Below, in pieces: positions 8,496 to 59,644 of a stretch of 64,000 bases of DNA. Below the pieces are notes generated by a model that worked only from the letters and a program-made list of their open reading frames with translations, made no database searches and was not told the origin of the DNA. The translations under genes were made by a program, and so were the position numbers. Origin of the DNA: an uncultured Candidatus Binatia bacterium (GTDB taxonomy: Bacteria > Desulfobacterota > Binatia > Bin18); NCBI GenBank assembly GCA_965214605.1, contig OZ243961.1, positions 553,917-617,916 on the forward strand. The letters are read 5' to 3'. Numbering within the stretch: the stretch's first letter is position 1; every line of letters begins with the position of its first letter.

Positions 8496-8516
8496 CGGGG
8501 CTGGGGGAATCACAGG

Positions 8517-10649
8517 GTGAAAGCCACACAAGCCCTCGTATTGATCGTGCTCGTGCTGCTCATTGGCTTGTTCTTTGGCTTTGAGCTCCAGCGATTTCTG
8601 ACCATTGAGTACTTCACCGCCCAGCGGGACGCCATTACCGCCTTCCAGACGCAAGCCCCCCTGATCACCGCTGGGACGTTCTTCATCCTGTATGTTGCGG
8701 TCACAGGTTTGTCCCTGCCCGGTGCAGCCCTACTGACCCTCATCGCCGGGGCGCTCTTCGGCTTCCTGCCGGGTGTAATCCTGGTGTCATTCGCGAGTTC
8801 CTTGGGAGCGACTCTGGCGTTTTCCATGGCCCGTTATCTGTTGCGCGACACCGTACGCTCGCGGTTTGCACGCCAGCTGACCGCCATTAACCGCGGCATC
8901 GAAAAAGACGGCGCCTTCTATCTGTTCGCGCTGCGGCTCGTTCCGGCCTTCCCCTTCTTTGCCATCAACCTGGCCATGTCGGTCACACCGCTGTCAACCT
9001 GGACCTTCTACTGGGTCAGCCAAGTCGGCATGTTGGCCGGAACGGTCGTCTACGTCAACGCTGGCGCACAGCTGAGCAAAATTACATCGCTGACCGGCAT
9101 CCTCTCGCCGACACTAATCGTCTCGTTCGCCCTGCTCGGCCTCTTTCCGCTGATCGCCAAAAAGACTCTAACCGCCACCAAGTCACGCGCGGTATTGCGC
9201 CGCTTCAAGAAACCTCAACATTTCGACACCAACCTTGTCGTCATCGGGGCGGGGTCTGGGGGTTTGGTCTGCGCGCTCATCGCTGCCACGGTCAAGGCCA
9301 AGGTGACGTTGATGGAGCGACACCGCATGGGCGGCGACTGCCTGAATACCGGCTGTGTTCCCAGCAAGTCCTTACTGCGTTCGGCAAAGATATTGAGCTA
9401 TACAACAAGAGCCAGGGCATATGGTTTCAAGAACGCCAGTGTAGAGTTCGACTTTGCCGATGTCATGGAGCGGGTGCAGCGAATCATCACCACAATCGAA
9501 CCCAAGGATTCCACCGAGCGCTATACCAGCCTGGGAGTGGATTGTGTCATGGGTGACGCCACTATTGTTTCGCCTTACCGCGTCCGCGTCAACAACCAGG
9601 AGATCACCACTCGCAGCATTATCATTGCCACCGGCGGCACCCCGTTCGTGCCGCCCATCCCAGGCCTTGAGGAAGCCGGCTATTTCACATCGGACACAAT
9701 CTGGGAGCTGCGCACTCTGCCGCGCCGTCTCGTTATTCTTGGCGGCGGTCCCATCGGCTGTGAGCTGGCACAAGCCTTCTCCCGCTTTGGATCATCGGTG
9801 ACGATGGTGGAACGCAACCCGCATCTGTTGATGCGCGAAGATGCTGAAATAAGCGCCTTCGTGCAGGCCCGGTTTACCGCGGAAGGCATTCGCCTCCTCA
9901 CCAACCACACCGCCCTGCGTGTCGAGACCATGGACGGTCGCAAGCAGCTGGTCTGCGAACGCGACGGACAAGAAACAACCGTAGCGTTCGATGCCATTCT
10001 GGTCGCGGTCGGACGACGACCGACGACCGCCGGCCTCGGCCTTGAAACACTCGGCCTTGCTCTGGATAAACGGGGAGCCATTGAGGTTGACGACTACCTG
10101 CGGACCAATATCCCCACCATCTATGCCTGTGGCGATGTGGTTGGTTCCTACCAATTTACCCATACCGCGTCCCATCAGGCCTGGTACGCCACGGTGAACG
10201 CCTTGTTCAGTCCCTTTCGGCAGTTCAAGGTCGACTATTCAGTGATCCCCTGGACGACCTTCACCGACCCCGAAGTGGCGCGCGTCGGCTTGAATGAACA
10301 GGACGCTGCGCGACAGGGTACGCCGGTCGAGGTGACGCGTTACGATCTTGACGATCTCGATCGCGCTCTGGCCGACGAGGAGGGCCGGGGATTTATCAAA
10401 GTGTTGACGCCCCCGGGCAAGGATCGGATCCTCGGCGTCACTATTGTCGGCCACCACGCTGGCGAGCTTATGGCGGAGTTCATCCTAGCGATGAAGTGGG
10501 GGCTGGGACTGAAGAAGATCCTGAGCACAATCCACATCTATCCGACGCTGAGCGAAGCGAACAAATATGCGGCAGGCGTCTGGCGCAGAAACAACGCTCC
10601 TGGTAGCCTGCTCGACTGGGTGGAGAAGTTCCACCGCCTGCGCCGCTAG
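8517..10649 (+). CDS. DedA/TVP38-family membrane domain fused to class I pyridine nucleotide-disulfide oxidoreductase (mercuric reductase/dihydrolipoamide dehydrogenase-like)
   Basis: N-terminal ~230 aa polytopic membrane DedA-like; C-terminal GAGSGG...GGDCLNTGCVPSK redox-active disulfide and FAD/NAD Rossmann motifs. Confidence 0.8.
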   Translation: MKATQALVLIVLVLLIGLFFGFELQRFLTIEYFTAQRDAITAFQTQAPLITAGTFFILYVAVTGLSLPGAALLTLIAGALFGFLPGVILVSFASSLGATLAFSMARYLLRDTVRSRFARQLTAINRGIEKDGAFYLFALRLVPAFPFFAINLAMSVTPLSTWTFYWVSQVGMLAGTVVYVNAGAQLSKITSLTGILSPTLIVSFALLGLFPLIAKKTLTATKSRAVLRRFKKPQHFDTNLVVIGAGSGGLVCALIAATVKAKVTLMERHRMGGDCLNTGCVPSKSLLRSAKILSYTTRARAYGFKNASVEFDFADVMERVQRIITTIEPKDSTERYTSLGVDCVMGDATIVSPYRVRVNNQEITTRSIIIATGGTPFVPPIPGLEEAGYFTSDTIWELRTLPRRLVILGGGPIGCELAQAFSRFGSSVTMVERNPHLLMREDAEISAFVQARFTAEGIRLLTNHTALRVETMDGRKQLVCERDGQETTVAFDAILVAVGRRPTTAGLGLETLGLALDKRGAIEVDDYLRTNIPTIYACGDVVGSYQFTHTASHQAWYATVNALFSPFRQFKVDYSVIPWTTFTDPEVARVGLNEQDAARQGTPVEVTRYDLDDLDRALADEEGRGFIKVLTPPGKDRILGVTIVGHHAGELMAEFILAMKWGLGLKKILSTIHIYPTLSEANKYAAGVWRRNNAPGSLLDWVEKFHRLRR

Positions 10650-35506: not shown

Positions 35507-37687
35507 ATGGCCGACGTAGCTGCTCACATCCCCAGCGTGCACACCTACCGCACCCAGGGTGGGATTGATATTCGTCGCAGCATTGAAAGTATCCCACTTC
35601 AGGACGCTATCGAGCCAATCATTGACGGTCTCAATAGTCAGCGCGGCGTCCTTTTGGCGTCAAGCTATGAGTATCCGGGCCGCTATACACGCTGGGACAT
35701 CGGCTTTGTCAATCCCCCCCTATCCCTGAGCTGTCGACAACGAAAATTTCGGCTGTCGGCCCTAAACGAACGCGGCCAGATTCTCCTGCCAGGGCTAGCG
35801 CGGGCATTTGAGGCCCTGCCCGTACTCGCCTCGTCTGAGCGTAACGAGAGTCACATATCAGGCACGGTTCGGGAGGTGGAGAGCCGTTTTGCCGAAGAGC
35901 AACGCAGCAAACAGCCCTCGATCTTTTCGCTGCTCCGAGCGCTCATTGAGCTGTTTGCGTCGGATGAGGACGCCAATCTTGGGCTGTATGGCGCCTTTGG
36001 CTATGATCTGGCCTTTCAGTTCGAACCCCTGCGCCTTCACCTCACCCGCCCCGAAGAGCAACGCGACCTGGTGTTGTATATTCCCGATGAACTAATCGTG
36101 GTTGACCACCGCCGCGAACAGGCGCTGCGCTATCGCTACGATTTCGAGCTTGACGGGCGCTCCACCTACAATTTGCCCCGGGTTGGAACGAGCCAACCCT
36201 ACCAGGGAACAGGTACCGTTGCTCAGGCCTGCGACCATCAACCGGGTGAATACGCCGAAGGCGTTCGGGTGGCCCGCCAAGCATTCCAGCGCGGCGACCT
36301 GTTTGAGGTCGTGCCGGGTCAGACCTTTTTTGAGGTCTGTCCTACGCCGCCCTCAGAACTGTTTCGACGTCTGCGTGAGCGCAATCCATCCCCGTACGGA
36401 TTTCTGATCAACCTCGGCCAAGCCGAATACCTAGTTGGCGCGTCCCCCGAGATGTACGTCCGGGTGGAGGGCGACCGGGTGGAGACCTGCCCGATTTCCG
36501 GCACAATCGCCCGCGGTCGGGATCCGATCAACGATGCCAGCCAAATCTTGCGGCTGCTCAACTCCCGCAAAGACGAGTCTGAGCTGACCATGTGTACAGA
36601 TGTTGACCGCAACGATAAATCCCGGATCTGTCAACCGGGTAGCGTACGGGTGATTGGGCGGCGACAGATTGAGATGTATTCGCGACTGATTCACACGGTC
36701 GATCATGTTGAGGGTCGCCTACGGCCCGAGTTTGATGCCCTGGATGCGTTTTTGGCCCACACCTGGGCGGTGACGGTCACCGGTGCGCCAAAAGCGTGGG
36801 CCATGCAGTTTATTGAGGAGCACGAAAAATCACCCCGCGCCTGGTACGGCGGGGCCGTCGGTCTGCTCGGCTTTAATGGCAATATGAATACAGGGCTCAC
36901 CCTGCGTACGATTCGGCTCAAAGACGGCGTGGCCCAAGTCCGAGCCGGGGCCACCCTGTTATACGACTCCAACCCGGACGATGAAGAACGCGAAACCCAT
37001 ATCAAAGCGTCTGCCTTCTTGGATGCTATTCGTCGCCCGAGTGAAAGCCAAGGCGAGCGGTCGTTGGAAGTCGCTAGCCCAGGCCGGGGTAAACGGATTC
37101 TGCTAGTCGATCATCAAGACTCTTTTGTGCATACCTTGGCCAACTATTTGCGTCAGACCGGGGCCGAGGTCTTGACCCTCCGAGCCGGTTTTTCGCACCA
37201 TGAATTTGAGGCCCGGCAACCTGACCTCGTCGTCCTGTCGCCCGGTCCAGGCCAACCGTCGGATTTTGATGTTTCCGGCACTTTGGCGGCCGTACTTGAA
37301 CGCCAGCTGCCCGTTTTTGGCGTGTGTCTCGGTTTACAGGGTATTGTCGAGCACTTCGGCGGCGAACTGTCCGTGCTGCCTTACCCAATGCATGGCAAAG
37401 CGTCAGCCGTGCGGGTGGTGGGCGGACGGATTTTTGAGGGCCTCCCGCGCGAGCTCACGGCAGGCCGCTATCACTCTCTGTTCGCCCGCAAAGACCGGCT
37501 GCCCTCCCAACTCCACATCACCGCGGAGAGCGATGATGGTGTGATCATGGCGGTTGAGCACCGTGAGCTGCCGATTGCCGCTGTCCAGTTTCATCCCGAG
37601 TCTATTTTGACTCTGGATGAAGACTATGGCCTGCGCCTGATGTATAACGTGGTAGTCAGCCTATGCGCCGACGCAGGCCTTCCCTAG
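35507..37687 (+). CDS. trpE: anthranilate synthase, fused component I/II TrpE(G)
   Basis: 726 aa; N-terminus matches rhizobial-type TrpE(G) (GGIDIRRS...SYEYPGRYTRWDIGFVNPPL); C-terminal class-I glutamine amidotransferase (GVCLGLQG). Confidence 0.85.
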   Translation: MADVAAHIPSVHTYRTQGGIDIRRSIESIPLQDAIEPIIDGLNSQRGVLLASSYEYPGRYTRWDIGFVNPPLSLSCRQRKFRLSALNERGQILLPGLARAFEALPVLASSERNESHISGTVREVESRFAEEQRSKQPSIFSLLRALIELFASDEDANLGLYGAFGYDLAFQFEPLRLHLTRPEEQRDLVLYIPDELIVVDHRREQALRYRYDFELDGRSTYNLPRVGTSQPYQGTGTVAQACDHQPGEYAEGVRVARQAFQRGDLFEVVPGQTFFEVCPTPPSELFRRLRERNPSPYGFLINLGQAEYLVGASPEMYVRVEGDRVETCPISGTIARGRDPINDASQILRLLNSRKDESELTMCTDVDRNDKSRICQPGSVRVIGRRQIEMYSRLIHTVDHVEGRLRPEFDALDAFLAHTWAVTVTGAPKAWAMQFIEEHEKSPRAWYGGAVGLLGFNGNMNTGLTLRTIRLKDGVAQVRAGATLLYDSNPDDEERETHIKASAFLDAIRRPSESQGERSLEVASPGRGKRILLVDHQDSFVHTLANYLRQTGAEVLTLRAGFSHHEFEARQPDLVVLSPGPGQPSDFDVSGTLAAVLERQLPVFGVCLGLQGIVEHFGGELSVLPYPMHGKASAVRVVGGRIFEGLPRELTAGRYHSLFARKDRLPSQLHITAESDDGVIMAVEHRELPIAAVQFHPESILTLDEDYGLRLMYNVVVSLCADAGLP

Positions 37688-37808
37688 CAGACGCCCCACA
37701 GTCGCGTCGCTGGGCAGAGGCAGGCCGCACGGATTGCCAGGCGACCCGACTCACTCCGGCTCGGTCACCGGGGTCCAGGCAGCCACTCCCGGCACCGCAA
37801 CGAGCAGG
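37599..37808. repeat. direct repeat copy A (3' end of trpE(G) plus 3' end of an MFS-like frame), ~85% identical to 41678..41886
   Basis: direct sequence comparison in this window. Confidence 0.8.
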
Positions 37809-38300
37809 TCCCAGAATGCGGCTGGTTCGTCGAGGTCGAAAATCAGTGGGGGAATGCTGGGGCCGTGGCGGTGGATGTGCCACTCCAAACCGGTGGTAAA
37901 AGCGATACGGGCATCGAACCCGGTGGTTTCCCTGATGATTTGAGCCGCGTGTTTCGTGTCGCTGAGGTTGCCTGACGGCTGACACCTCAGCAGTATGGCC
38001 GGTGTGCCGCCGGAGTATAGTGTGTAACTTCCCGGGTGCTCTGGCGACGGTTCGCGATGCGCAGCGGTGAATCCAATGGCGTCCAGTATGGGATTGATGA
38101 CGGCTTCTTGGGTGATGCCTGTCGAACGTTGCAGGTTGATGTCGCGCTGAGCGGCGGCGTTCTGGGCGTCGGCGATGGTCTGAGTCAGTGCCGCGCGGTG
38201 CGCTTCGGCGCGATGCTTCGCATCGTCTTGATGGTGTGATCTTCGTGCATTGTCCCTTTTGCTCCTTCGCTTCCAGTGGACTCGTGATGTAGTAGTGACG
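37753..38300 (-). pseudogene. restriction-endonuclease-like (HsdR N-terminal/Mrr-like) domain ORF lacking a canonical start
   Basis: frame with no ATG reads ...INPILDAIGF...AILLRCQPSGNLSD...IAFTTGLEWHIH..., resembling the type I R-subunit N-terminal domain family; C-terminally in-frame with the MFS-tail copy VAVPGVAAWTPVTEPE. Confidence 0.3.
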
Positions 38301-38764
38301 CCGGCAGTCCTGCCGTATCACAGGCGCATAACGATTCGCAAAAATCCCAGGCGCCGATTCTGTGCTTGCGCTCCGATCGGCGCCGGCTTGATACCTTCCC
38401 TTGGGGTCGGCGACTCTTTGCCTTCGTCTTGCTCTTGTGCTGTTCTGAGCAGCGGAATCGCCTGATTCTATGGTTGCCGGTACCGGGGGATGGTACAGTT
38501 TTGGCCGCGGCAGGACGGGCAAGTCGAAGGCTGGGGCGGTCTGTCTGTCCTGCCGGGTCTGTCGGTTGCGCTCTCTTTGCCAATATCCGTAGCAGATCCG
38601 TCGTTGGCAGACTGCGCAGCGTGGGCCGGCTGGGTCGGCATGGTCGGCTATTGGGGCAGGTGTGGCAGATGATGATGTCGTCGGCTATATGTCCTCTCTG
38701 GTAGGGCTGTGCAAAGGCTATCCGGGTCATGCAGTGTGTGGACGAATTGAGTGCGAGCTTCGGA

Positions 38765-39935
38765 AACGGTTTTCGTTTGGCTCGCGGCGGCACGGCAGTT
38801 GCTCTGGTTTACGGAGGGCGGGATTGCGTGCTCCCGGGATGGCGTCACGCGGGGATTGCATCCCCCTCTCATCTCCAGCTAGTATCCGCAACAGGGGGGC
38901 ATCGCCCATGCCCAAGAGGTTTGAGGACACGACGAGATCCATGATCCGCCCCGTGCAGACGTCAAAATCAATGAACCTGAACTTGGTGCGCCGGCCTGTT
39001 CCGGCAACTCAACGCGCAGCAACCGCTCAGCGTTTCGCACGGCAAACAGCGCAGCAACCTGCGCGCTAGGACGGAGAGAACGACCATGAGCGCTACACTG
39101 AGCCCCGCAGAACGCGCCCGCTTTCTCCAGGCGCTGAAGGAGGACTCCGACTTCCGCGAGGCGGTACGCCAGCACCTCCTGAGCGACGCACTGCTGGAAC
39201 TGCCGGAAAAATTCGCCCAGTTCGCCGCCTACGTCAACGAATTTATCGCCAACACCAACGAATTTATCGCCAACACCAACAAATTTATCGCCGACCAAAA
39301 GGCATTCAATACCCGCACCGAAGAACGCCTGGACCGGATTGACGACCGTCTGGACCGTGTTGAAGGCCGTCTGGACCGTGTTGAAGGCCGTCTGGACCGT
39401 GTTGAAGGCCGTCTGGACCGTGTTGAAGGCCGTCTGGACCGGATTGACAACCATCTGGACCGGATTGACAACCGGCTGGACCGGATTGACGACAGCATCG
39501 GCATCCTGAAAGGCAACGCAGCGCGACGTCTGCTCAGAGATCACCTCGAAGGCGTCCTAGAACTCGTAGGCGTAGAGGATTTCGTAAGAATCCTGTCCAG
39601 CAGCGACCTGATTCGCCTGATGCGCACCTCAGGCATGGCTCGCGAGATACCCTACGGAGAACGGCGGAGTTTCTATGCCGCCGATCTGGTCATCGAAGCC
39701 GCCGACGCAACGGGTGCCCCCTGTTATATCACGGCCGAGGGGTCCTTCACCGCGGATAAGCGGGACAGCAGCCGGGCGATTCGGAATGCCGCATTCCTGA
39801 CCCGGCTTACCGGCCACCCGGCCTCCCCTGTCGTTGCCAGCATGAGGAACGACTACGAAGTGCAAGAGCTGGTCAATCAGGAAACCATCCGCTGGTTCCA
39901 GCTGGACGAGCGGGACCTCGAAGCGGATTAGGACG
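38765..39935. repeat. tandem duplication unit 1 (~1.2 kb: 320-bp leader plus repeat-protein gene)
   Basis: near-identical to 39995..41095 apart from internal 21-bp repeat copy number. Confidence 0.8.
39086..39931 (+). CDS. hypothetical protein with variable heptad (21-bp) tandem repeats and conserved C-terminal domain, copy 1
   Basis: 281 aa; (FIANTNE/K)x2 ... (RLDRVEG)x4 (RLDRIDN)x2 coiled-coil repeats; C-terminal ~150 aa identical to copy 2. Confidence 0.6.
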   Translation: MSATLSPAERARFLQALKEDSDFREAVRQHLLSDALLELPEKFAQFAAYVNEFIANTNEFIANTNKFIADQKAFNTRTEERLDRIDDRLDRVEGRLDRVEGRLDRVEGRLDRVEGRLDRIDNHLDRIDNRLDRIDDSIGILKGNAARRLLRDHLEGVLELVGVEDFVRILSSSDLIRLMRTSGMAREIPYGERRSFYAADLVIEAADATGAPCYITAEGSFTADKRDSSRAIRNAAFLTRLTGHPASPVVASMRNDYEVQELVNQETIRWFQLDERDLEAD

Positions 39936-39994
39936 TGATACGATCGCCGTGCCGCGGCCAGCCAAATTCCAGCAAGTGCTTATAGCACCGGTTC

Positions 39995-41095
39995 GCTTTG
40001 GCCAGCGGTTTTCGTTTGGCTCGCGGCGGCACGGCAGTTGCTCTGGTTTACGGAGGGCGGGATTGCGTGCTCCCGGGATGGCGTCACGCGGGGATTGCAT
40101 CCCCCTCTCATCTCCAGCTAGTATCCGCAACAGGGGGGCATCGCCCATGCCCAAGAGGTTTGAGGACACGACGAGATCCATGATCCGCCCCGTGCAGACG
40201 TCAAAATCAATGAACCTGAACTTGGTGCGCCGGCCTGTTCCGGCAACTCAACGCGCAGCAACCGCTCAGCGTTTCGCACGGCAAACAGCGCAGCAACCTG
40301 CGCGCTAGGACGGAGAGAACGACCATGAGCGCTACACTGAGCCCCGCAGAACGCGCCCGCTTTCTCCAGGCGCTGAAGGAGGACTCCGACTTCCGCGAGG
40401 CGGTACGCCAGCACCTCCTGAGCGACGCACTGCTGGAACTGCCGGAAAAATTCGCCCAGTTCGCCGCCTACGTCAACGAATTTATCGCCAACACCAACGA
40501 ATTTATCGCCAACACCAACAAATTTATCGCCAACACCAACAAATTTATCGCCAACACCAACAAATTTATCGCCAACACCAACGAATTTATCGCCGACCAA
40601 AAGGTCTTCAATGCCCGCACCGAAGAACGCCTAGACCGGATTGACGACAACATCGGCATCCTGAAAGGCAACGCAGCGCGACGTCTGCTCAGAGATCACC
40701 TCGAAGGCGTCCTAGAACTCGTAGGCGTAGAGGATTTCGTAAGAATCCTGTCCAGCAGCGACCTGATTCGCCTGATGCGCACCTCAGGCATGGCTCGCGA
40801 GATACCCTACGGAGAACGGCGGAGTTTCTATGCCGCCGATCTGGTCATCGAAGCCGCCGACGCAACGGGTGCCCCCTGTTATATCACGGCCGAGGGGTCC
40901 TTCACCGCGGATAAGCGGGACAGCAGCCGGGCGATTCGGAATGCCGCATTCCTGACCCGGCTTACCGGCCACCCGGCCTCCCCTGTCGTTGCCAGCATGA
41001 GGAACGACTACGAAGTGCAAGAGCTGGTCAATCAGGAAACCATCCGCTGGTTCCAGCTGGACGAGCGGGACCTCGAAGCGGATTAGGACGTGATA
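39995..41095. repeat. tandem duplication unit 2
   Basis: see unit 1. Confidence 0.8.
40325..41086 (+). CDS. hypothetical protein with variable heptad tandem repeats, copy 2
   Basis: 253 aa; (FIANTNE/K)x5 and no RLDRVEG block; otherwise identical to copy 1. Confidence 0.6.
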   Translation: MSATLSPAERARFLQALKEDSDFREAVRQHLLSDALLELPEKFAQFAAYVNEFIANTNEFIANTNKFIANTNKFIANTNKFIANTNEFIADQKVFNARTEERLDRIDDNIGILKGNAARRLLRDHLEGVLELVGVEDFVRILSSSDLIRLMRTSGMAREIPYGERRSFYAADLVIEAADATGAPCYITAEGSFTADKRDSSRAIRNAAFLTRLTGHPASPVVASMRNDYEVQELVNQETIRWFQLDERDLEAD

Positions 41096-41677
41096 CGACC
41101 GCCGTGCCACCGCATATTTGCCGGCTGGCGCCACCACCGGACAAGTGAGCGGTGCCAGCCGTTCCCGAAACGGCCGCGCAGTTGCCGGAACCACCCCTGC
41201 GATTTCGCGGGTGTCTCAAATAATCAGACTGAATTTCAGGAGACATCACTATTCAGCGCTGAGTCGCGAGGTCTAGCCCGTAGCGTTCCGCTGATTGTGC
41301 CGTCGGGAGACTGCTCGGCCGGGGAGGCGCTGGCGAGCTGTGGTTCGGGGAGGCTGTCGCCATCGGCGAACATCCAGACCACATCAATGGGGTAGGCGTT
41401 GTTGGTGAGTACCACGTTGCGCAACGCCGTCTTGAGGTCCTCGGGCACCATATCGCGGCGTCCGTGCTGATAGGGGCGCCGGGATGAGAGCCGGGGCCGC
41501 CTACTGTGGCGTGTGTCCTTGTTTGGGGACGACGAGGAGTGTCGGGGGGAGAGGCGTGGAGTGCCTGTGGGCAAAATCTCTCGCTTTGATGCCGGGGGGG
41601 CCGGCGGGCTGCCCCGTTTGGGTGGCTGGGGACTGCCCGCGGACTGCCGGGCCGGCGATTAGGTGATGAGCCCGCCG

Positions 41678-41886
41678 AGTCTATTGTGACTCTGGATGAA
41701 GACGATGGCCTGCGCCTGAGGTATAACGGGAGCGCTGGCCGAGGCGCCGCCGCCGGCCTTCCCCGGCAGACGGCCCCCAGGCGCATCGCCGGGCAGAGAC
41801 AGGCCACACGGATTGCCCGGCGCCCCGCCTCACTCCAACTCGGTCACCGGGGTCCAGGCAGCCACTCCCAACACCGCAACGATCAT
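41678..41886. repeat. direct repeat copy B (degraded trpE(G) 3'-end copy plus the authentic MFS 3' end)
   Basis: aligns to 37599..37808; trpE tail reads VTLDEDDGLRLRYNGSAG... instead of LTLDEDYGLRLMYNVVVSLCADAGLP*. Confidence 0.8.
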
Positions 41887-43107
41887 CAGCCCGCTGGTGG
41901 CCGCGCAGGTGAGAAGAGGGCCGAGCCAATCGACCAGGACCCCAGCCAGCGGCGCCCCGATCAGGCCGGTCGTTCCCATAAACCCGAGGGTGTAGACCGA
42001 CAGGATCCGAGCCCGGTGGGAGGGCCGCGCCTGCTCTTGGAACACCGTCCGGCCGGCGCTCATAAAAATAGAGGCGCTCGTCCCCCATACCCCCACCACT
42101 AGCAAGGCTCCCCAGAAGGGCAGGCCAAACGACAGACTGCCAATGCAGCCGGCCCCGACGACCAGTGCCGTCACTTGGGCTCGTCCCTTACGCCGGATCC
42201 CACCGCGCCACAGGATGGTCCCTGCGCCAAAGATCGTGCCTAGTGGAAAGGCCATATTGAGCGTGGCGAGCTGAGCCACGTCGCCGCCATAGAAGTCCCG
42301 GACCAGCAACGGCAGGACGACCAGATAGGGACCGATAAAGCCGACCCCGACCACCATCACCAGTAACTGGAGTGGACGTAGGACCGGCGACCCAAAGACC
42401 TCCCGAACGCCCGCAACAAGGTCGCTCAGGCGAGCCCGCGTCTGCCCTGCTGTACTGCGTAACGATGGGGGGGGAAGTTTGCGCAACGTGGGCGCTCCAG
42501 CCAGCAAAACGAGCCCATGCATACACAGGGCCGGGACAATCCCCAGCCAACGCGCGCTGCCGGCCAAGAGCGCCCCCAGTGCTTGCGATGCCCACTGCGT
42601 CAGCGTCATACCAGCAACCGCCCGGAGCATGTTCGGTCCGGCAACTTCTGACAGCAGGGCGTCACGTGCCGGCATGGCAAACGCCTGCACCGTGCCCATA
42701 CCCAGGGCATAGCCAATCAGCAGGCTCATCGACAGCCAGCCCTTGGCCACAACGGCCACCAAACACCCGGACAGGGTGGCGGCGACGAGGTGTAGCCCAA
42801 TCAATAGCGTCCGACGATCGTTGCGGTCGGCCACCATCCCGCCGAGCAGAACCAGCAGGGTCGAGGGCAGCATGAGCGCGCTCTGGGCAATACCGACCCA
42901 ATCGGCATCGGCCTGCAAAACGCCGACAACCAACCATGAAAACAACACGCCCTGCATGCCAAAGGCGGTAAACCACGAGCCAAGGCCGGCCACGAACCAC
43001 AGGTAGAAGACCGGTTGCGAAGATGAGGAGGTTATGACCCGCCGCCCGGCGAGGGCGGGATGTGCTTGTTCATCGACCGTGAGTTTAACCGGGGGTGAGC
43101 TTGGCAC
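41830..43107 (-). CDS. MFS transporter
   Basis: 12-TM pattern, 425 aa. Confidence 0.75.
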   Translation of the reverse strand: MPSSPPVKLTVDEQAHPALAGRRVITSSSSQPVFYLWFVAGLGSWFTAFGMQGVLFSWLVVGVLQADADWVGIAQSALMLPSTLLVLLGGMVADRNDRRTLLIGLHLVAATLSGCLVAVVAKGWLSMSLLIGYALGMGTVQAFAMPARDALLSEVAGPNMLRAVAGMTLTQWASQALGALLAGSARWLGIVPALCMHGLVLLAGAPTLRKLPPPSLRSTAGQTRARLSDLVAGVREVFGSPVLRPLQLLVMVVGVGFIGPYLVVLPLLVRDFYGGDVAQLATLNMAFPLGTIFGAGTILWRGGIRRKGRAQVTALVVGAGCIGSLSFGLPFWGALLVVGVWGTSASIFMSAGRTVFQEQARPSHRARILSVYTLGFMGTTGLIGAPLAGVLVDWLGPLLTCAATSGLMIVAVLGVAAWTPVTELE

Positions 43108-43128
43108 GTATCATCCTCATTCAGGGGC

Positions 43129-43914
43129 TTATTGCTCTTCGTACCACTGGATTGCGCCCCGCAGCCCACGCTCTTTTCTGACGCGCCGAATCTCGTCATT
43201 GCCCGAGCCAAAGTGAAAAATGGCATCATATTCGGCGCCCGCCAGAACCGTGCTCCGAAAGCCTTGCAGATCCATGGCGCGGTTGATCGCCAATTTCTCC
43301 AACCGCAGCTTTTCCGCCGGCACCTTGGCCACCCGCCGGGCGTACCGATAGGTTTCGGCCTCCAGAGCGTCGGCCGGAAAGGTCCGGGTGGCAAAACCCA
43401 TGGCCTCGGCCTCTTTACCGCTGATCTGACTGCCTGGCAAAAACGCCATATATTTGGTCCGGTGCGGCCCGACCATCCAGTTCCACATTGAGCTCACAAA
43501 GCCCGCCCCGGCGGGGAGCGAGGGAAAGCCGAGTCGGGCATCGTCGGCCATGAAAATGACATCCGAGCAGGCACAGATCTGACTCGCCCCGGCCAGGCAG
43601 TAGCCATGGACCATGGCAATCACCGGCTTGGGCAACTCGCGCAGGCTGAGCCAACGTTCAATCATTGTTTGGAGTTCGGTTCGGTCGCCATCAACGGTTT
43701 TCGCTCCCCCGCCGCCGGCCAGGTCATAGCCGGCCGAAAACGCCCGTCCAGCGCCCCGAATGATAAGGACTTTGATCTCCTCATCGCAACCAGCCAAGGC
43801 AATTGCCTGAGAAAATTCGTCTAACAACGCCGGGTTCATGGCGTTCAGCTTCTCGGGTCGATTGAGCGTCAGCGTTCCGATCCGGTCCTGTTTGTCCAAG
43901 AGTACCAGGTCCAT
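43129..43914 (-). CDS. enoyl-CoA hydratase/isomerase (crotonase family)
   Basis: MDLVLLDKQDRIGTLTLNRPEKLNAMN; oxyanion-hole blocks. Confidence 0.8.
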   Translation of the reverse strand: MDLVLLDKQDRIGTLTLNRPEKLNAMNPALLDEFSQAIALAGCDEEIKVLIIRGAGRAFSAGYDLAGGGGAKTVDGDRTELQTMIERWLSLRELPKPVIAMVHGYCLAGASQICACSDVIFMADDARLGFPSLPAGAGFVSSMWNWMVGPHRTKYMAFLPGSQISGKEAEAMGFATRTFPADALEAETYRYARRVAKVPAEKLRLEKLAINRAMDLQGFRSTVLAGAEYDAIFHFGSGNDEIRRVRKERGLRGAIQWYEEQ

Positions 43915-52696: not shown

Positions 52697-53948
52697 GACT
52701 TCTCCCTTCTGCAACAGCTGTCGTGTTCCCCCCTACTAGCAGCTTGGACAAGAGCCATGACCAACGTCGCAATCCCTGCCCCTTGCAGCCGCAAAGCCCG
52801 CTACCACTGCGCCTTTGTGGCCGGGTGGTCATCGTCTGTCTGAGACGCTTCTCCGATAGCTCTGGCTCTGGCTTCGGCCTGACACTAGTCCATCCCGGTC
52901 TTTTACAACTCTTTGGCTCTAGTCCGTGTGTCAAAAGCCATGACTTGGCTCTCCCCTTTCCTGCCCAATATACCCCCTATTAAGGAAGAAAACAGCGGGG
53001 AAAACTTTGCTATCTCACCTTAAACACCTATAGGGAGGTATTGTCTGATTGCCAGGCATGTCAAGCCGCGGCCTGCTTGCCTCGCCCCCAGCCTCTCCCG
53101 CGCCGGGAGGGGGGAAAGCCTCCGCCTACAGCAGGTGAAATTGGCACAGTACTCTGGCCACCTCCGGATCGCTACGCTGTTCTAACGCCCAGAACACCTC
53201 TCTCAGCTCCTCCAACCGCAGGCGGTTGCCGCTGAGGTCATCTTCCAGGCTCCCCACCTGCCTGCGCAAAGGTCCAACTCATCGTTCGTCGGTTCCGCAG
53301 CACAAAGCCTCTGCTAAGCCGCCACGAGTGTGCTACAGGCACTCTAGTAGCCTCAGGGTCAACTGAAATTGGCGGGCAAACCGTGCGGCCATGTCCTCCC
53401 GCAGTTGGTGAGAACGCCTAGCCGTATCGGTCCAGAGTTGCTCATTCTGTTGGGCCCGCAGCTGGCCCATCTCCGCCGGCAACCGACCGATGTCTCCACG
53501 CAATTGCTGGGACCGCGTCCGCCAACCCCGCTTGTCGGGCTTCGAGTCGTATCAGACGCCTCGGTCAAGGTCGGGGATAGCTCTCCGGGGCGGGCAAGAA
53601 CACTATGACCAAAACCCCCGGGAGGAAGGATTAACTCATGGCGGCATTCAAGGTCGGATGCCGGAAATGTCAAGTCATGTGGAAAAGGGGATCAGCCTGA
53701 CTCGACTGACGGGGCCGTTATGGCATCCACAGCTTCTCCTCAGCAGGGGTAAGCCAAGGCGGCATAATATCGAAAGGGGCGAGCCAGCAACCGCAGCGGC
53801 TCGGTCCCCCCTCCCCTCCTCTCTCCAAGGGGAGGAAAGTGCAGACGGAGACACGACTCGCCAGCGGCTCAATTCCTGGTCTTGCTTGTTTCAAATCCCA
53901 TGTCTAGGCTGTGTTGGGAAAGCTCTTCAGCAGACGAATAGGAGAGAT

Positions 53949-56900
53949 ATGAGACGACAACATCACAGTGGTCAGAACGCTCGTGACTGGCGGCGCCAAA
54001 TAGCAGCCTCTGCGGAGAAACAACAAGAAAGCGTCTTCACATATAAGTTTGGACTGAGCATACAAGAGGGAGATTTAGACTTTGCCGCGGCCACTCGAAC
54101 CTACGACATCACCGAAGGGATTTTATGCGGGAGCTTAATCGGCTTGATATGCGCTGTGCATCTGTCCGGGTTTCGCCTATTTTCCAAGAGCGGGGAGACA
54201 CGCCAGTTCCGAAATCGAAGTCGATATCCCGAAGACGCATTCACCAAGGCGTTCCGCGCTCATACGGAAATCATAAACCCTGACATTACGATTCAGTCAA
54301 TTGAGGCTGTCTTCGCCGCACCTCCGCGAAAGAAAATAGCCTGGTCAGCGGACACCCTTGGGAAGCGGCTGTTTCAAACCTGGAACAATCGCTCCCCAAA
54401 AGACGCAGAGAGAGAGCACCCAGAATTTTTACTGGCCCAGGGAATCGCTTGCGAAGTCGCCAAACAGTTCTCCGGATGGAAGGAACTCGCCGACAATGTA
54501 AGCGGTGCACTGGCCTGCGCTGACAGATATCTGGCGACCCTGGGAGACTCCTTTCCAAAACTCAGTAACCTGCCACCCGGAACCACGATCAATCCAGACT
54601 CTTGTACGCTTGCCTACGATCCCGAATCGCCCTTCGTTGAGATGGTTGGTAACGAAGAAAACTGGCTCCATCAGGTAGTGGCGGTTTGTGCTGGCAGGCT
54701 GAAACGAGACATGCCCGATCGTGACCTATCCTCGTCTGATTTTGCAAAGCGTCTGAACGACGCTGTTGTTACTAGTCAGCACAATGGACTGTCTTGGTTA
54801 TTCGGCAACGGCCTACGCTACCTTCGGAAATCAAGCATTGAGCGGATTACCGAAAACCTTGATGTTCCACACGGGAAGCGCCAACGAGTTGAACAACTCA
54901 AAGCCTTTGCCGACGCGCTTCCTGACAATCCATTTTTCGACACCAATGGCTATGCCGAGTTTCGTACCTCCGTCGGTGGCAAGATCGCCTCATGGGTCTC
55001 GAACTACTGGAAGCGCATTTGCGAACTTGCGACGTTGCATTCTCAGCCGCCGGATATCGCTATTCCCGAAACGCTGCAAGATCCCGATAACGCCTTTCTG
55101 TTTTCTGGTCAGCACACCAACGCTGCCGGCCTCATAGACCTCTCTAATCGCATCCCTGAGCGGGTCAAAAAAGCCGGCAATGCGCTTGTTGTTCTGCGTG
55201 GAAGTTGTATTCCTGGACCGGAAGATATCGCCGTCGTTGAATCCGTTGCCGATGAGATGACCGAACTCACTGGGCAACTCTCCATGCTCGACAACCGCAT
55301 TCGGCAGGAAACCGAACGCGCCAAAGACGCCGAAAACGAAAAACGTGCCAAGGTCCTAGAATCCCTCAGGCCAAACATTCCCAAAGGTCTCAAGGATCTG
55401 CCCAAACTAAACAGCATATCAGGCGGCACCGTGGACGCTACCGGTGAGATCAAACGGCTGGAAGCCGACCTGAACTCCGTCATACGAGCACGCCGTGAGC
55501 ACTTCCGGCAACTCTCTGAATGGGCGGACAGTAACGCAGGCGGCCTTGATCCCCTGCCCATCCTTAAAGAACGCGAACAAGAGGCGCTTTCCGACCGAAA
55601 CATGGACCTCGATTGTGCAGCTGAATACGCTATCCGGCGTCTGCTTGATCGCATCGGCGTCATGTCGCATCGACTGTCGCCAAGTGTAGCCGAGCAAATC
55701 CGGACCGCCATGACGCCGCTTTTTCGCAGGAAAAAAGAGGCAAACCGCTACTTCTACAATCGCAACGGCAGGATCTATCGGCATCCCTTCAGCACCTCAC
55801 GTCACCAGGCTTATGCCATAGACGTAGAGCGTGCCCACGCAACCGATTGGCTCTTGTGGTTGGAGGAGCGGACGACAGAAATCCGTAACGCTCTGCGCGC
55901 GGATCAGACACGCCTACGCGATCTTCTGTTGATGGAAGCTTTTGTCCTGACGACACGGCTCGGCGGTCTCTCTGATCGTGTACCGGGGGATCTGGCGAAA
56001 CCGGAAAACGACTGTCTCAACATTCCTCCCCTGCTCAAAGCGCAGCTCGAGGCTAGGGAGGTTTCGCGCGATGTGGCCGTGCGCGCCTTCAATCTGTTCA
56101 ATAGTGCTATCAATGGTCTGTCGTTTCGCGCCTTCCGTGATAGTTTCATTGTTCGCGTTAAGTTTCAGCGCCAAGATCGCGAAGAAGTATTTTATGTCCC
56201 GAAGGAACGCCCCTGGCAGGCACCAGCTGACTATGATTCAGCCAAGGGTGAGATATCTAAGGGCTTGAAGCTCTCCGCAGTCGTGCGTGACCAAACCGGG
56301 GCTGTTCTGCCGCGTGAGACAGCCAAGGGCTTGAGTAAGGCGAAGTTTCCCGAGCCGGGTACGCGTGCCCTGCTGCGTCAATCGCCTCATGACTGGTTCG
56401 TCGAACTCGATGTCCGCTCTACCCAGGCTTCGGAGTTGGCAGGGCTGCCCGTCAAGAAGAACAAAGACGGACTCAAGCGCTGGAAAGTCCTGAAAAAGCC
56501 GGCCTTTCGACTAGTCGGGCCGCCCTCGTTCAAGACGCAGCTCGACCGCGCTCTGACAAGCGGAGAGGTGAAGCTCGGCGACTACACGCTCATCATTGAC
56601 CAGCTCTTCAAACAGTCCTTGTACGTCGAAGGTGAGGAGATACACCTTTTGGCTGAACCGGTAAAGATTCGGGCAGAACTGGCGGTTCCAGTAATAGACA
56701 ACCGGCCGTATCCCAAGTCTGAAACCGACTTGATATTTAACAAGATCGTTGCCATAGACCTTGGCGAGCGACGGGTCGGCTACGCGGTCTTCTCGCTCAT
56801 AGACTTCGTGGAAAACGGTTGCCAAAATCCGATCAAGGTGGGGAGCGTCGCCATTCCCGCTTTCAGGAAACTGATGGCCGCGGTCCGCCGCCACCGCGGG

Positions 56901-57734
56901 TCGCGGCAGCCCAACCAGAAGGTCGACCAAACCTACTCGAGAGCGCTGATGCAGTTCCGAGAAAACGTGGTGGGAGACGTCTGCTCTCGCATTGAGACCT
57001 TGTGCGAATACTTCGGCGGATTTCCCGTACTCGAAAGTTCGGTGGGAAATTTCGAGACAGGGGGCCGCCAGCTGGAGATGATCTATGGTTCAGTCCTGCG
57101 CCGCTACACTTTCTCCGAAGTGAAAGCCCATAAAGCCACCCGTAGCCATCATTGGTTCACAGCGGACACCTGGAAGCATCCCTACGTCTACACCTACACC
57201 TACACCTGGAATAAGAGAGAAAAGCAATATTCCGGCCCATCCAAGCCGCTGAAGATATTCCCCGGCGTCACGATCAACCCGGCCGGCACCAGCCAGACTT
57301 GCCAGCATTGTAAGCGGAATGCCCTTCAGGCGCTGCGTAACATGACGGACAAGGTCGAAGTGGGAGAAGACGGCCGCGTAGTCCTCGGAAACGGGACGAT
57401 ACGGCTTCTCGAACGAGCCGATTATCTTCCTTCCGAACGAAGAAAATTTCGTCACAACAAAGCAAGGCCGCCGCTAAACGTGCCTGCCCAGAAAGGATCC
57501 CGGCTAAGCCGCGACATCACGCGTATCGCCAGACGAAACATGCGGCAACCCCCATCTTCCACAATGTCACCCGATACCACACAGTCTCGCTTCAAATGCG
57601 TGTACGTTGACTGCGGCTATGAGGGGCATGCCGACGAAAATGCCGCAATTAACATCGGCCGGCGTTTTTTGGAACGGATCGATATGGAAACGTCGAGAGG
57701 GACGTGCCGGGACTTGACCGGGCAGCGAGAATGA
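53949..57734 (+). CDS. cas12: Cas12-family (type V) CRISPR effector, ~1261 aa
   Basis: C-terminal TnpB-like core: RuvC-I IVAIDLGERRVGYAV, RuvC-II VLESSVGNFE, Zn-finger CQHCKRN...CVYVDCGY, RuvC-III GHADENAAINIGRRF; large N-terminal REC-like region; SD GGAGAG before the ATG at 53949; upstream part of the 53490 ORF looks non-coding. Confidence 0.75.
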   Translation: MRRQHHSGQNARDWRRQIAASAEKQQESVFTYKFGLSIQEGDLDFAAATRTYDITEGILCGSLIGLICAVHLSGFRLFSKSGETRQFRNRSRYPEDAFTKAFRAHTEIINPDITIQSIEAVFAAPPRKKIAWSADTLGKRLFQTWNNRSPKDAEREHPEFLLAQGIACEVAKQFSGWKELADNVSGALACADRYLATLGDSFPKLSNLPPGTTINPDSCTLAYDPESPFVEMVGNEENWLHQVVAVCAGRLKRDMPDRDLSSSDFAKRLNDAVVTSQHNGLSWLFGNGLRYLRKSSIERITENLDVPHGKRQRVEQLKAFADALPDNPFFDTNGYAEFRTSVGGKIASWVSNYWKRICELATLHSQPPDIAIPETLQDPDNAFLFSGQHTNAAGLIDLSNRIPERVKKAGNALVVLRGSCIPGPEDIAVVESVADEMTELTGQLSMLDNRIRQETERAKDAENEKRAKVLESLRPNIPKGLKDLPKLNSISGGTVDATGEIKRLEADLNSVIRARREHFRQLSEWADSNAGGLDPLPILKEREQEALSDRNMDLDCAAEYAIRRLLDRIGVMSHRLSPSVAEQIRTAMTPLFRRKKEANRYFYNRNGRIYRHPFSTSRHQAYAIDVERAHATDWLLWLEERTTEIRNALRADQTRLRDLLLMEAFVLTTRLGGLSDRVPGDLAKPENDCLNIPPLLKAQLEAREVSRDVAVRAFNLFNSAINGLSFRAFRDSFIVRVKFQRQDREEVFYVPKERPWQAPADYDSAKGEISKGLKLSAVVRDQTGAVLPRETAKGLSKAKFPEPGTRALLRQSPHDWFVELDVRSTQASELAGLPVKKNKDGLKRWKVLKKPAFRLVGPPSFKTQLDRALTSGEVKLGDYTLIIDQLFKQSLYVEGEEIHLLAEPVKIRAELAVPVIDNRPYPKSETDLIFNKIVAIDLGERRVGYAVFSLIDFVENGCQNPIKVGSVAIPAFRKLMAAVRRHRGSRQPNQKVDQTYSRALMQFRENVVGDVCSRIETLCEYFGGFPVLESSVGNFETGGRQLEMIYGSVLRRYTFSEVKAHKATRSHHWFTADTWKHPYVYTYTYTWNKREKQYSGPSKPLKIFPGVTINPAGTSQTCQHCKRNALQALRNMTDKVEVGEDGRVVLGNGTIRLLERADYLPSERRKFRHNKARPPLNVPAQKGSRLSRDITRIARRNMRQPPSSTMSPDTTQSRFKCVYVDCGYEGHADENAAINIGRRFLERIDMETSRGTCRDLTGQRE

Positions 57735-57841
57735 GCCACCATCGTTCCTATTCTCTTCCAGGCCCAAGGACTTATCATCCATACCTCAACCTGGAAGACG
57801 TCCCCGCCTCCCCGGACGCCCTTCAAAGAGGGGAGGCATCA

Positions 57842-58897
57842 TCACCTTACCAGCTTTGAAGAGGAATGGGAGGTAAGGGGAATATCGCCTGGCAGCCGAT
57901 AGGAGACCTTTGGCGGACGCCCGCCTTTACGTTCACCCGCGGCGGGAACGATAAACCGGCGCATGTCGCCGGCCAGGTAAGCCCGCAGCGCCAACACGCT
58001 TCCATGCAACAGATTTTTACGGCGCACAAACTGGTGGGTAGCGGGAACGTAGACAACCTTCTCCATATCGTTCTTCAGCCCGGACAAAGTGGCTTTGGTC
58101 AGCGAGTCAGAGGCATTGTCCGGGGGATGGGTCCGGCAGGCCCCGGCAACGGCCTCTTCAATCATGTACCGGGCTGGCTCCATGAGATCGTAGACAAGTC
58201 CCATGTAGTCGGTCCCTTCATGCAGGAATCCGTGACTGGGCGAAAGCCGGTGGATTAACAACCAGCGCAAGAGTACCCCAGACAGGAACATGGACCCTGC
58301 ATCAAGGGCGGCTGGTAAAGGCCCCTCCCCTCTGCGAGTGATATCAGGGTATCCCATCCGAGTGAAATATCTCCGCCAATATCTGCGTGATTGCTCGGCT
58401 TCCCAGGCCCGTATCTGTCCAAGATTCCGTGTACGCGCCAGCCGTTTGTAGACAGCGCTTGGCATGGGCAGTGTGTTCTCTACCGCCCGAAAACGTTCAC
58501 GTACTAGAGTCCGCGCAATATAGGCACGTTTAGATTTATTTGTCCGGGTAACGATCTGTCTGGTCAAAATATCGTCGGCATCGACTCTGGGAGCTGGCAA
58601 GAAAATCGCTGGGCGGCTGATGTTGCGGCGGTGAACAAGGAGGGGCACTCGGCGAAAGGCAAGTTCGTCAATGAGAGCGACCGGAATCTGGCCAGTCGCG
58701 CCGTAGAACATGATGCAATCAAGCTGCGACAGCTCAGTATCGACCTCGCCTCCGTTATATGTGAACCGCCATAAGTTCTTTTTGAGCCTTGCTACCTGAG
58801 AGACGTATGGTAGCCACAAGGTCGTCTTGCTTCTCCGCTTGGTTGATTTCCATGTCCAAAGAGAATTTGGATGTTGAAATTGATCAATTTTAACCAT
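57842..58897 (-). CDS. cas1: CRISPR-associated endonuclease Cas1
   Basis: Cas1 blocks LDCIMFYGATGQIPVALIDELAFRRVPLLV and HGFLHEGTDYMGLVYDLMEPARYMIEEAV; no cas2 or cas4 adjacent. Confidence 0.85.
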   Translation of the reverse strand: MVKIDQFQHPNSLWTWKSTKRRSKTTLWLPYVSQVARLKKNLWRFTYNGGEVDTELSQLDCIMFYGATGQIPVALIDELAFRRVPLLVHRRNISRPAIFLPAPRVDADDILTRQIVTRTNKSKRAYIARTLVRERFRAVENTLPMPSAVYKRLARTRNLGQIRAWEAEQSRRYWRRYFTRMGYPDITRRGEGPLPAALDAGSMFLSGVLLRWLLIHRLSPSHGFLHEGTDYMGLVYDLMEPARYMIEEAVAGACRTHPPDNASDSLTKATLSGLKNDMEKVVYVPATHQFVRRKNLLHGSVLALRAYLAGDMRRFIVPAAGERKGGRPPKVSYRLPGDIPLTSHSSSKLVR

Positions 58898-58958
58898 ATA
58901 TGTCCTCAGTAAGAAAATCGAAAAATCATTGTAATATAAATATTTATCTGGTATACCT

Positions 58959-59623
58959 CCAGTTCTGAAGGGGAATTAGAGGCCGAAAAATATGAGTTCT
59001 GAAGGGGAATTAGAGGGTGTGGAGCATGACGCAATCCAGTTCTGAAGGGGAATTAGAGGCTGAAATACGGGCGTTCCTCCAGTTCTGAAGGGGAATTAGA
59101 GGTTCTCAACAGCATGAGGAGTCCAGTTCTGAAGGGGAATTAGAGGTTCTCAACAGCATGAGGAGTCCAGTTCTGAAGGGGAATTAGAGGTTCTCAACAG
59201 CATGAGGAGTCCAGTTCTGAAGGGGAATTAGAGGTTCTCAACAGCATGAGGAGTCCAGTTCTGAAGGGGAATTAGAGGTTCTCAACAGCATGAGGAGTCC
59301 AGTTCTGAAGGGGAATTAGAGGTTCTCAACAGCATGAGGAGTCCAGTTCTGAAGGGGAATTAGAGGTTCTCAACAGCATGAGGAGTCCAGTTCTGAAGGG
59401 GAATTAGAGGTTCTCAACAGCATGAGGAGTCCAGTTCTGAAGGGGAATTAGAGGTTCTCAACAGCATGAGGAGTCCAGCAGGGGAATTAGAGGTTCTCAA
59501 CAGCATGAGGAGTCCAGTTCTGAAGGGGAATTAGAGGCACGCGCATGACGCACCCCCCAGTTCTGAAGGGGAATTAGAGGATGGAAGGCTTCGGGCTGCC
59601 CAGTTCTGAAGGGGAATTAGAGG
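58959..59623 (+). CRISPR. CRISPR array, 16 repeats of 24 nt (CCAGTTCTGAAGGGGAATTAGAGG) with 18-20 nt spacers; AT-rich leader at 58898..58958
   Basis: period 43-44 bp; 6 distinct spacers, one present in 10 tandem copies; second repeat lacks 5' CCA; one repeat is truncated (59475..59493). Confidence 0.85.
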
Positions 59624-59644
59624 CAGGGAGGGAGGGCTGGAATC

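Follow-up and report, generated by a model that had tools for sequence, protein, structure and literature searches.

How can several kilobases of accessory DNA come to lie between two convergent housekeeping genes, with both genes left whole and the 3′ ends of both duplicated? The question is raised by a locus in an uncultured Candidatus Binatia bacterium (GTDB lineage Bacteria; Desulfobacterota; Binatia; Bin18), analyzed here in a window of 64,000 nucleotides (nt), positions 553,917 to 617,916 of the forward strand of contig OZ243961.1 in assembly GCA_965214605.1; all coordinates below are positions within this window unless another locus is named. At this locus, an insert of ~3.9 kb separates trpE(G), which encodes a fused anthranilate synthase, from the gene of a major facilitator superfamily (MFS) transporter, and is bracketed by imperfect direct repeats made of the 3′ ends of both genes. 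We conclude that this accessory DNA very probably entered a compact convergent junction in a single event that duplicated 211 nt, after the lineage had split from its nearest sampled relatives.

The repeat pair and the junction in related genomes

A repeat search of positions 36000–43500 and of the whole window found one long two-copy direct-repeat family, which lies in the following setting:

35507–37687, plus strand: trpE(G), fused anthranilate synthase, 726 amino acids (aa), intact, left flank (Pfam Chorismate_bind 1.3e-66, GATase 2.1e-42)
37596–37806: left repeat copy, composed of the functional trpE tail (37596–37687, 92 nt), a spacer (37688–37750), and a dead MFS-tail remnant in minus-strand sense (37751–37806, 56 nt)
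41675–41885: right repeat copy, composed of a dead trpE-tail remnant (41675–41766), the spacer (41767–41829), and the functional MFS 3′ end (41830–41885)
41830–43107, minus strand: MFS transporter, 425 aa, intact, native, right flank (Pfam MFS_1, MFS_3)

The two copies are each 211 nt long, align without gaps at 85.3% identity (31 mismatches), and are separated by 4079 nt from start to start; copy-versus-copy BLAST E-values of 1e-36 to 1e-64 are far beyond chance. A sequence-only reading of this DNA, made earlier by a model from the letters and a list of open reading frames (ORFs), had already described a ~3.9-kb insertion bounded by ~210-bp imperfect repeats of ~85% identity, and both the insertion and the repeats hold, its repeat coordinates being ~3 nt off at each end. 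Pairwise alignment gives abrupt homology edges for both copies, and mismatches are spread roughly uniformly (17%, 16%, and 9% in three parts). Within each copy, the order is trpE(G) tail, 63-nt spacer, and MFS tail, and the unique DNA enclosed is 37807–41674 (3,868 nt). As the sequence-only reading had it, trpE(G) is whole only at the left copy and the MFS gene only at the right. The trpE(G) end at the left copy reads ...SLCADAGLP before its stop, and in the right copy the true end of the MFS gene reads ...IVAVLGVAAWTPVTELE before its stop on the minus strand. Their displaced counterparts have decayed: the MFS remnant in the left copy reads LVAVPGVAAWTPVTEPE and a stop on the minus strand, and the trpE tail in the right copy, which reads ESIVTLDEDDGLRLRYNGSAGRG..., has lost its stop and has 12 of 30 residues changed.

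The insert directly abuts two complete 211-nt copies, and nothing else is duplicated. Because it sits exactly between complete copies, insertion and duplication are best regarded as a single event; a separate duplication that was later invaded is unlikely, the insert lying exactly at the boundary between the copies.

Relatives were gathered from several collections. The GTDB species set provided the species-level relatives L001 and L026 and nothing closer than 88% TrpE identity, JGI metagenomes held nothing above 80% TrpE identity, and a large protein database (5.8 billion proteins) queried with the MFS protein gave L169, L167, and L170 together with L166, an independent copy from the same strain. 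Exact look-ups of the window TrpE(G) and cargo protein returned no match. The trpE(G) and orthologous MFS stops are ~29 nt apart in L001 and L026 and 26 nt apart in L170 (TrpE 90%, MFS 81%), TrpE(G) of the window being 88–90% identical in amino acids to these three, so that these three offer an empty target site, and in the window both target genes are full length. The other junctions are occupied differently. In L169 (88% nt identity), 1.5 kb of unrelated, apparently non-coding DNA fills the junction; in L167, L168, L173, and L174 (87% nt identity), it holds 833 nt consisting of a repetitive extragenic palindromic (REP)-like palindrome and the C-terminal half of an OEP/TolC-type gene; and in the more distant L171, a full OEP gene, the last of an RND operon, converges on the MFS gene, with trpE not nearby. 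The truncated OEP gene (L167 11291–12121; also in L168, L173, and L174) encodes 211 aa that are 84% identical to the C-terminal half of the full-length OEP of L171 (L171 8321–9598). The trpE(G)/MFS junction is thus a lineage-variable spot with at least five states among close relatives.

None of the compared relatives has duplicated tails at the junction, and none shares anything with the window insert. The same arrangement with identical repeats in relatives, which the sequence-only reading had named as the sign of an ancient local duplication, was not found in any of them. No other copy of the insert was detected near trpE(G) in 165 loci or elsewhere in the window.

The OEP sequences bring up the alternative that the insert is the remnant of an ancestral block at this position, such as the RND/OEP operon of L171 with its relic in L167, and that the compact junctions are deletions. 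A full OEP in L171 and its C-terminal half at the junction of L167, L168, L173, and L174 would fit a loss of content in some lineages, but tblastn and tblastx searches revealed no OEP or RND trace in the insert. Both window copies, moreover, keep trpE tail, spacer, and MFS tail contiguous, from which it follows, independently of the relatives, that the junction was compact just before the event. Such contiguity is possible only if the junction was already compact, and we regard the ancestral block as highly improbable.

About equally implausible is an artefact of metagenome assembly, in which related strains or species would have been joined chimerically at a homologous junction. The sequence does come from a metagenome-assembled genome, in a community with several related Binatia. 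Against this, L166, an independent short-read contig from another sample, matches window positions 40521–43150 at 99.9% identity and reproduces the cargo, the small ORF, the right repeat copy, and the MFS gene, so that the right junction is no assembly accident. Both flanks also show the same pattern of divergence to four relatives, and the right trpE tail is a decayed pseudogene rather than the working gene of another strain.

Age of the event and route of entry

The two copies share a history that the relatives lack. Their MFS tails have ~10 derived states in common, including C→W, Q→P, and R→E in the protein, their trpE tails share one derived site and a C-terminal extension, and the 63-nt spacer is present in both copies and in no relative. 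Because these derived states and the spacer are shared and are absent from relatives, the copies coalesce inside the window lineage, after its split from L167 and L169. When the trpE-tail differences were polarized with four outgroups, 12 of 13 were derived in the right copy, 10 of these 12 at codon positions 1–2, which indicates that essentially all divergence of the right tail accrued when it was already a dead remnant. The sequence-only reading had supposed a homologous fragment from a related strain; a displaced tail that differs mainly at codon positions 1–2 is not a recent copy of such a strain's working gene. The MFS tail has two GG/AA sites, both with CTG as the ancestral codon, for which the functional copy has TTG (synonymous) and the left remnant CCG (Leu→Pro). 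The copy-to-copy distance is ~0.16–0.18 and the window–L167 distance at 4-fold sites 0.40; the insertion event is therefore old, at roughly 40–45% of the depth of the L167 split if the copies decayed in place. We are highly confident that the insert is now a fixed relic, immobile and without mobility genes.

The ancestral junction very probably consisted of the trpE(G) stop, 63 nt, and the MFS stop. After the insertion, the trpE(G) end was retained in the left copy and the MFS end in the right, and the other halves decayed. The substitutions between the copies bear on how the DNA came in. The A:T↔C:G class accounts for 16 of the 31 differences (52%), compared with 35 of the 328 substitutions of this lineage in 8.7 kb of flanking DNA (11%; p ~1e-6), 74% of which are transitions, and with 2 of 19 in the lineage's non-coding DNA alone (p ~0.007). 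Where the changes are polarizable, they run A:T→C:G and occur only in that arm of the right copy which comprises the trpE tail and the spacer: in 41675–41829 compared with 37596–37750, 15 of 26 substitutions are A:T→C:G transversions. This arm is GC-enriched and adjoins the end of the insert, whose GC content is 67% (41251–41674). Of the five differences in the MFS tail, four are ordinary transitions and the fifth is a G/T transversion. The direction in which the substitutions run switches at the MFS stop, from 20 versus 5 on one side of it to 0 versus 5 on the other (p = 0.002), and a block of 31 identical nt (37760–37790), the longest identical run between the copies, is located where it switches. 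Read from the substitutions, these patterns suggest that the arm from 41675 to ~41829 may have evolved under a different regime while traveling with the insert, with an exchange near the MFS stop. A predominance of A:T→C:G changes is also what 8-oxo-dGTP misincorporation, or time spent in a genome of different mutational bias, would be expected to leave. A Rho-utilisation explanation of the G-rich arm was dropped, T→G (8) and A→C (7) being balanced between strands.

We favor, tentatively and at somewhat less than an even chance, an event consisting of one reciprocal crossover between the chromosomal junction and a ~211-nt homologous arm on the incoming DNA. The incoming DNA would probably have been circular, and its arm would stem from an earlier capture of the same junction in this lineage or a sister. 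The crossover would have been either RecA-dependent (Campbell type) or catalyzed in trans by a recombinase since gone, and its position may have been near the MFS stop, at ~37750–37790, in which case the right copy's trpE-tail and spacer arm, which is GC-enriched, would have come with the insert. The preference derives from the spectrum of that arm, whose A:T→C:G changes support a single crossover weakly.

Several observations weigh against this crossover or against the insertion as such. No integrase or transposase was found in any ORF or stop-free frame of 37751–41830 (no Phage_integrase, resolvase, or rve), in agreement with the earlier remark that no integrase remains inside, and the other window ORFs scanned contain no recombinase, intact or decayed. 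No statistically significant identical core of the att type is demonstrable between the copies, the 31-nt run being expected by chance with P = 0.15 given 31 mismatches in 211 nt. The switch in direction of change coincides with the boundary between functional and non-functional sequence, and in situ decay predicts the same partition. An arm that copies a lineage-specific junction requires an earlier capture event, which makes a crossover less parsimonious. RecA-dependent exchange across 211 nt at 85% identity would be very inefficient, an objection that assumes that the arms had already diverged at the time of the event. Long direct repeats or a conserved terminal inverted repeat flank none of the cargo homologues, and the cargo is absent from phages, viral contigs, and plasmids except for one distant match on the Thermomicrobium roseum megaplasmid. 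The left junction, finally, lacks confirmation in a second assembly. No related circular or autonomous element was found in viral, phage, and plasmid collections.

The same copies can be explained by a one-step duplication of the target in situ, in which opposite-strand nicks ~211 nt apart, or a template switch, would have allowed linear foreign DNA to be captured, the overhangs to be filled, and the copies to decay. This is the most parsimonious scheme, requiring one event and decay. It accommodates an insert placed exactly between complete, sharp-ended copies, a roughly uniform mismatch density, copies that coalesce inside this lineage, and the lack of a significant core, a recombinase, and a flank mosaic; the age that it implies is plausible, with a neutral distance of ~0.09 per copy versus ~0.2 per lineage to L167. 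Against it stand the spectrum of the copies, 52% A:T↔C:G versus 11% in the lineage's adjacent DNA, and dead remnants that turned GC-richer although the dominant change in the lineage is G:C→A:T. Divergence of the spacer, where both copies can vary freely, does not exceed that of the tails, where only one copy can (numbers are small). No bacterial mechanism is known to make target duplications of ~200 nt routinely. On balance we consider in situ duplication unlikely, with a chance that is nevertheless appreciable.

Homology-facilitated illegitimate recombination is improbable. Linear DNA, taken up by transformation or in a comparable way, would have been anchored by homology in trpE or the MFS gene and its other end joined illegitimately slightly past the junction, for example between sister chromosomes, so that the 3′ end of one gene was displaced. 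Such a route needs neither a recombinase nor a circular intermediate, which matches their absence; it is documented for cargo placed beside a conserved anchor with the old 3′ end shifted back (PMC5361080, PMC3240628), and the junction does vary between lineages. Contrary to its expectations, sliding-window identity to five relatives showed no mosaic or recombination tract of unusual divergence in trpE or the MFS gene near the junction, at a resolution that is limited for a closely related donor, and sequence reading gave no evident microhomology at either repeat boundary. A tail from a working donor should also differ mainly at synonymous sites, which the trpE tail does not, and the process normally deletes recipient DNA instead of duplicating it (as described in PMC5361080).

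Evidence that discriminates among these mechanisms is thin, and a single crossover is preferred on the terms given above. The sequence-only reading had seen in the locus the footprint of single-crossover or att-type integration: an insert between complete copies is what such integration predicts, but the mechanism itself is not established, in that there is no significant core, recombinase remnant, or flank mosaic.

Contents of the insert, its flanks, and other loci in the window

Between the repeats, and extending into the left copy, the following features were delineated:

37751–38250, minus strand: orphan pseudo-ORF, from six-frame translation, with an ATG at 38250, a frameshift near 38190, and a stop at 37751–37753
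38251–38766: non-coding stretch of ~0.5 kb, G+T-rich on the plus strand by composition profile, with no Pfam match in stop-free frames and no Rfam family
38767–39953, plus strand: tandem cassette 1, a 319-nt upstream region and gene A (39086–39931, 281 aa)
39954–40005: inter-cassette filler of 52 nt, the first 13 nt of which, paired with the start of either cassette, complete an inverted repeat of 21 nt
40006–41191, plus strand: tandem cassette 2, the upstream region, gene B (40325–41086, 253 aa), and the original downstream flank
41236–41451, minus strand: small ORF of 71 aa (P0121), weakly related to uncharacterized proteins of ~82 aa and also called as a gene in L166
41452–41674: non-coding right end of the insert, rich in GC and directly joined to the GC-enriched arm of the right repeat

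In all likelihood the two tandem gene copies, plus possibly the 71-aa ORF, are the only clearly maintained cargo. The 71-aa ORF has no family in Pfam, NCBIfam, PADLOC, or PHROGs. The sequence-only reading had listed the tandemly duplicated repeat-protein gene correctly, had overlooked the small ORF, and had described the pseudo-ORF as restriction-enzyme-like (similar to the HsdR N terminus). No homologue of the pseudo-ORF, which runs in frame into the MFS-tail remnant, was found in Pfam or NCBIfam (both at E ≤ 10), PADLOC, PHROGs, or the 5.8-billion-protein database, and the nuclease fold belongs instead to the repeat protein.

Cassettes 1 and 2 are 99–100% identical outside their repeat arrays; the tandem duplication is therefore recent or homogenized. 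The 21-nt inverted repeat (19 of 21 positions complementary) occurs at 38776–38796, 39946–39966, and 40015–40035 and lies where each cassette starts and where cassette 1 ends. Its downstream arm extends across the limit of cassette homology into the 52-nt filler, and the tandem duplication was therefore no simple unequal crossover. The inverted repeat was not found at homologous cargo loci. No inverted repeat pairing the ends of the insert was found, the window contains no tRNA, Rfam families gave only sub-threshold chance matches in 37000–42500, and a promoter and terminator scan yielded nothing informative.

The cargo protein combines a coiled-coil stalk with a C-terminal domain of the PD-(D/E)XK nuclease fold, for which the restriction-endonuclease-like alpha/beta core is present. 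Gene A encodes three NEFIANT-type and eight LDRVEGR-type heptads and gene B six NEFIANT-type heptads and one of the LDR type; the tandem paralogues are near-identical in their flanks and in their N- and C-terminal regions, with the LDRVEGR array expanded in A and the NEFIANT array in B. Across >200 homologues, protein length moves in steps of 7 aa (210, 217, 224 ... 329 aa), and the length of the stalk appears to be a fast-evolving trait of the family. In the nuclease domain, D172 and E190 are invariant among 45 homologues, and the Lys of D...(D/E)xK is replaced by an invariant Ser (E190-x-S192), for which another basic residue, such as R198, might compensate. The canonical catalytic D...(D/E)-x-K motif is absent from these 45 homologues, and nuclease activity is putative. 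Pfam, NCBIfam, and PADLOC assign the protein to no family at sequence level, the matches there being coiled-coil noise; its closest known counterparts are proteins with the PD-(D/E)XK nuclease fold such as NucS/EndoMS, from which it differs by the Ser in place of Lys, the long variable coiled-coil stalk, and an N-terminal helical module.

Elsewhere, cargo homologues are single genes in unrelated neighborhoods, sometimes beside transposase or TnpB fragments and defence-type genes. Those of related Binatia (L082 6298–12537 and L083–L085 ~8001–8765) occur in defence-island-like contexts, with transposase fragments, SIR2, Uma2, a HigB toxin, a TnpB fragment (Cas12f-like TNB), Cas_APE2256 (PF09651), and a PDDEXK_9 ATPase as neighbors.

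The nuclease fold permits one further, very improbable reading, in which the cargo drove its own insertion with no classical recombinase involved: a dimer of the putative nuclease, spaced by the variable stalk, would cut ~200 nt apart, and the cassette would be captured in the staggered break. If true, this would account for the 211-nt duplication and would make the A:T→C:G changes scars of error-prone fill-in, and sponge-associated bacteria would harbor, in this cargo, a novel type of selfish gene cassette driven by a nuclease.

On the right flank, divergence of the MFS gene tracks that of trpE in every comparison made. The gene has a GC content of 64%, and a foreign origin was considered and rejected, the orthologues in L001 and L026 being equally GC-enriched over their trpE and the divergence tracking trpE. 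Over nucleotides 856–990 from its start (~42118–42252), the window is only 71–79% identical to five relatives, which are 83–87% identical to one another; this stretch is window-specific and lies in mid-gene, away from the junction. A protein >90% identical to the sister-clade MFS is encoded in L172 (7001–8290) in an entirely different neighborhood, among ParE/Phd, MazE/PIN, and HicA toxin–antitoxin modules and an MmeI-type restriction-modification gene, a context suggesting that the MFS gene itself has been moved or duplicated in some genomes.

Farther along the window lie a 1414-aa ORF with a C-terminal Cas12f1-like TNB domain (53490–57734, plus strand), a Cas1 gene (57842–58897, minus strand), and an array of a 22-nt repeat (AGTTCTGAAGGGGAATTAGAGG) with 21–22-nt spacers (58990–59624), in which the central ~9 units of 44 nt are 100% identical, spacer included. 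Taken together, positions 53490–59624 resemble a type V CRISPR-Cas locus in which both repeats and spacers are unusually short and one spacer is reiterated.

Known systems and wider meaning

The closest described architecture is that of e14, and of lambdoid phage 21, in the 3′ end of icd in E. coli K-12, where the element supplies a substitute 3′ end on one side and leaves a pseudo-3′ end of ~163 bp (icdC) on the other (PMC6379469, PMC13626634). As at our locus, a housekeeping gene is kept intact, and a homologous, non-identical 3′ end is displaced to the far side. The two differ in that e14 encodes site-specific recombination and still excises, whereas no recombinase was found in the window insert. 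The changes between icd and icdC are conservative and largely synonymous, whereas the window tail is changed at codon positions 1–2 and has lost its stop, and the window repeat spans two convergent 3′ ends and a spacer and has no significant core. Campbell integration shares with the locus direct copies with sharp ends that bracket the insert and are potentially chimeric, and it can accommodate the change in substitution direction near the MFS stop, but the donor circle is hypothetical and chimerism is inseparable from differential constraint.

Orphaned 3′ regions at type VI secretion system (T6SS) effector–immunity and Rhs loci likewise involve cargo beside a conserved anchor, with the old 3′ end shifted downstream and no integrase (PMC5361080). 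Those arrays expand through successive displacements among members of a single gene family, whereas the window shows a single event between two unrelated convergent genes, with both ends duplicated and no donor tract in the anchors. The insert resembles remnants of the cis-mobilizable element (CIME) kind and "grounded" prophages (for the concept, PMC6379469) in its direct repeats, its pseudogenes and few maintained genes, its lack of a recombination module, and its absence from relatives; it differs from them in that neither an att core nor remnants of phage or conjugation genes were found, and viral, phage, and plasmid collections yielded no autonomous relative.

Other classes of element were rejected. 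An autonomous integrase-mediated element would carry a recombinase gene, which this insert does not. A transposon or insertion sequence is excluded by the lack of a transposase and of terminal inverted repeats and by a duplication of 211 nt instead of a short one. The repeat pair is also not that of a diversity-generating retroelement, as the insert frames and the window ORFs scanned contain no reverse transcriptase, and the differing positions in the left copy include A (9) and T (11) as well as G and C. The window locus adds a further case to a known kind of scar, in which a decayed, non-autonomous islet lies between copies of a duplicated target.

As such, it provides a clean, well-bounded example, in an uncultured symbiont lineage, of accessory genes settling between convergent housekeeping genes with neither disrupted, and it shows what such scars look like after long decay. 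It also illustrates that a mobile element cannot be diagnosed from a long imperfect direct repeat alone. Two by-products may prove of more use than the insertion: the A:T→C:G spectrum, which, if confirmed in other dead DNA of the genome, would be informative on mutation or repair in this lineage, and the cargo family itself, uncharacterized and widespread, whose stalk changes by one heptad even between near-identical tandem copies.

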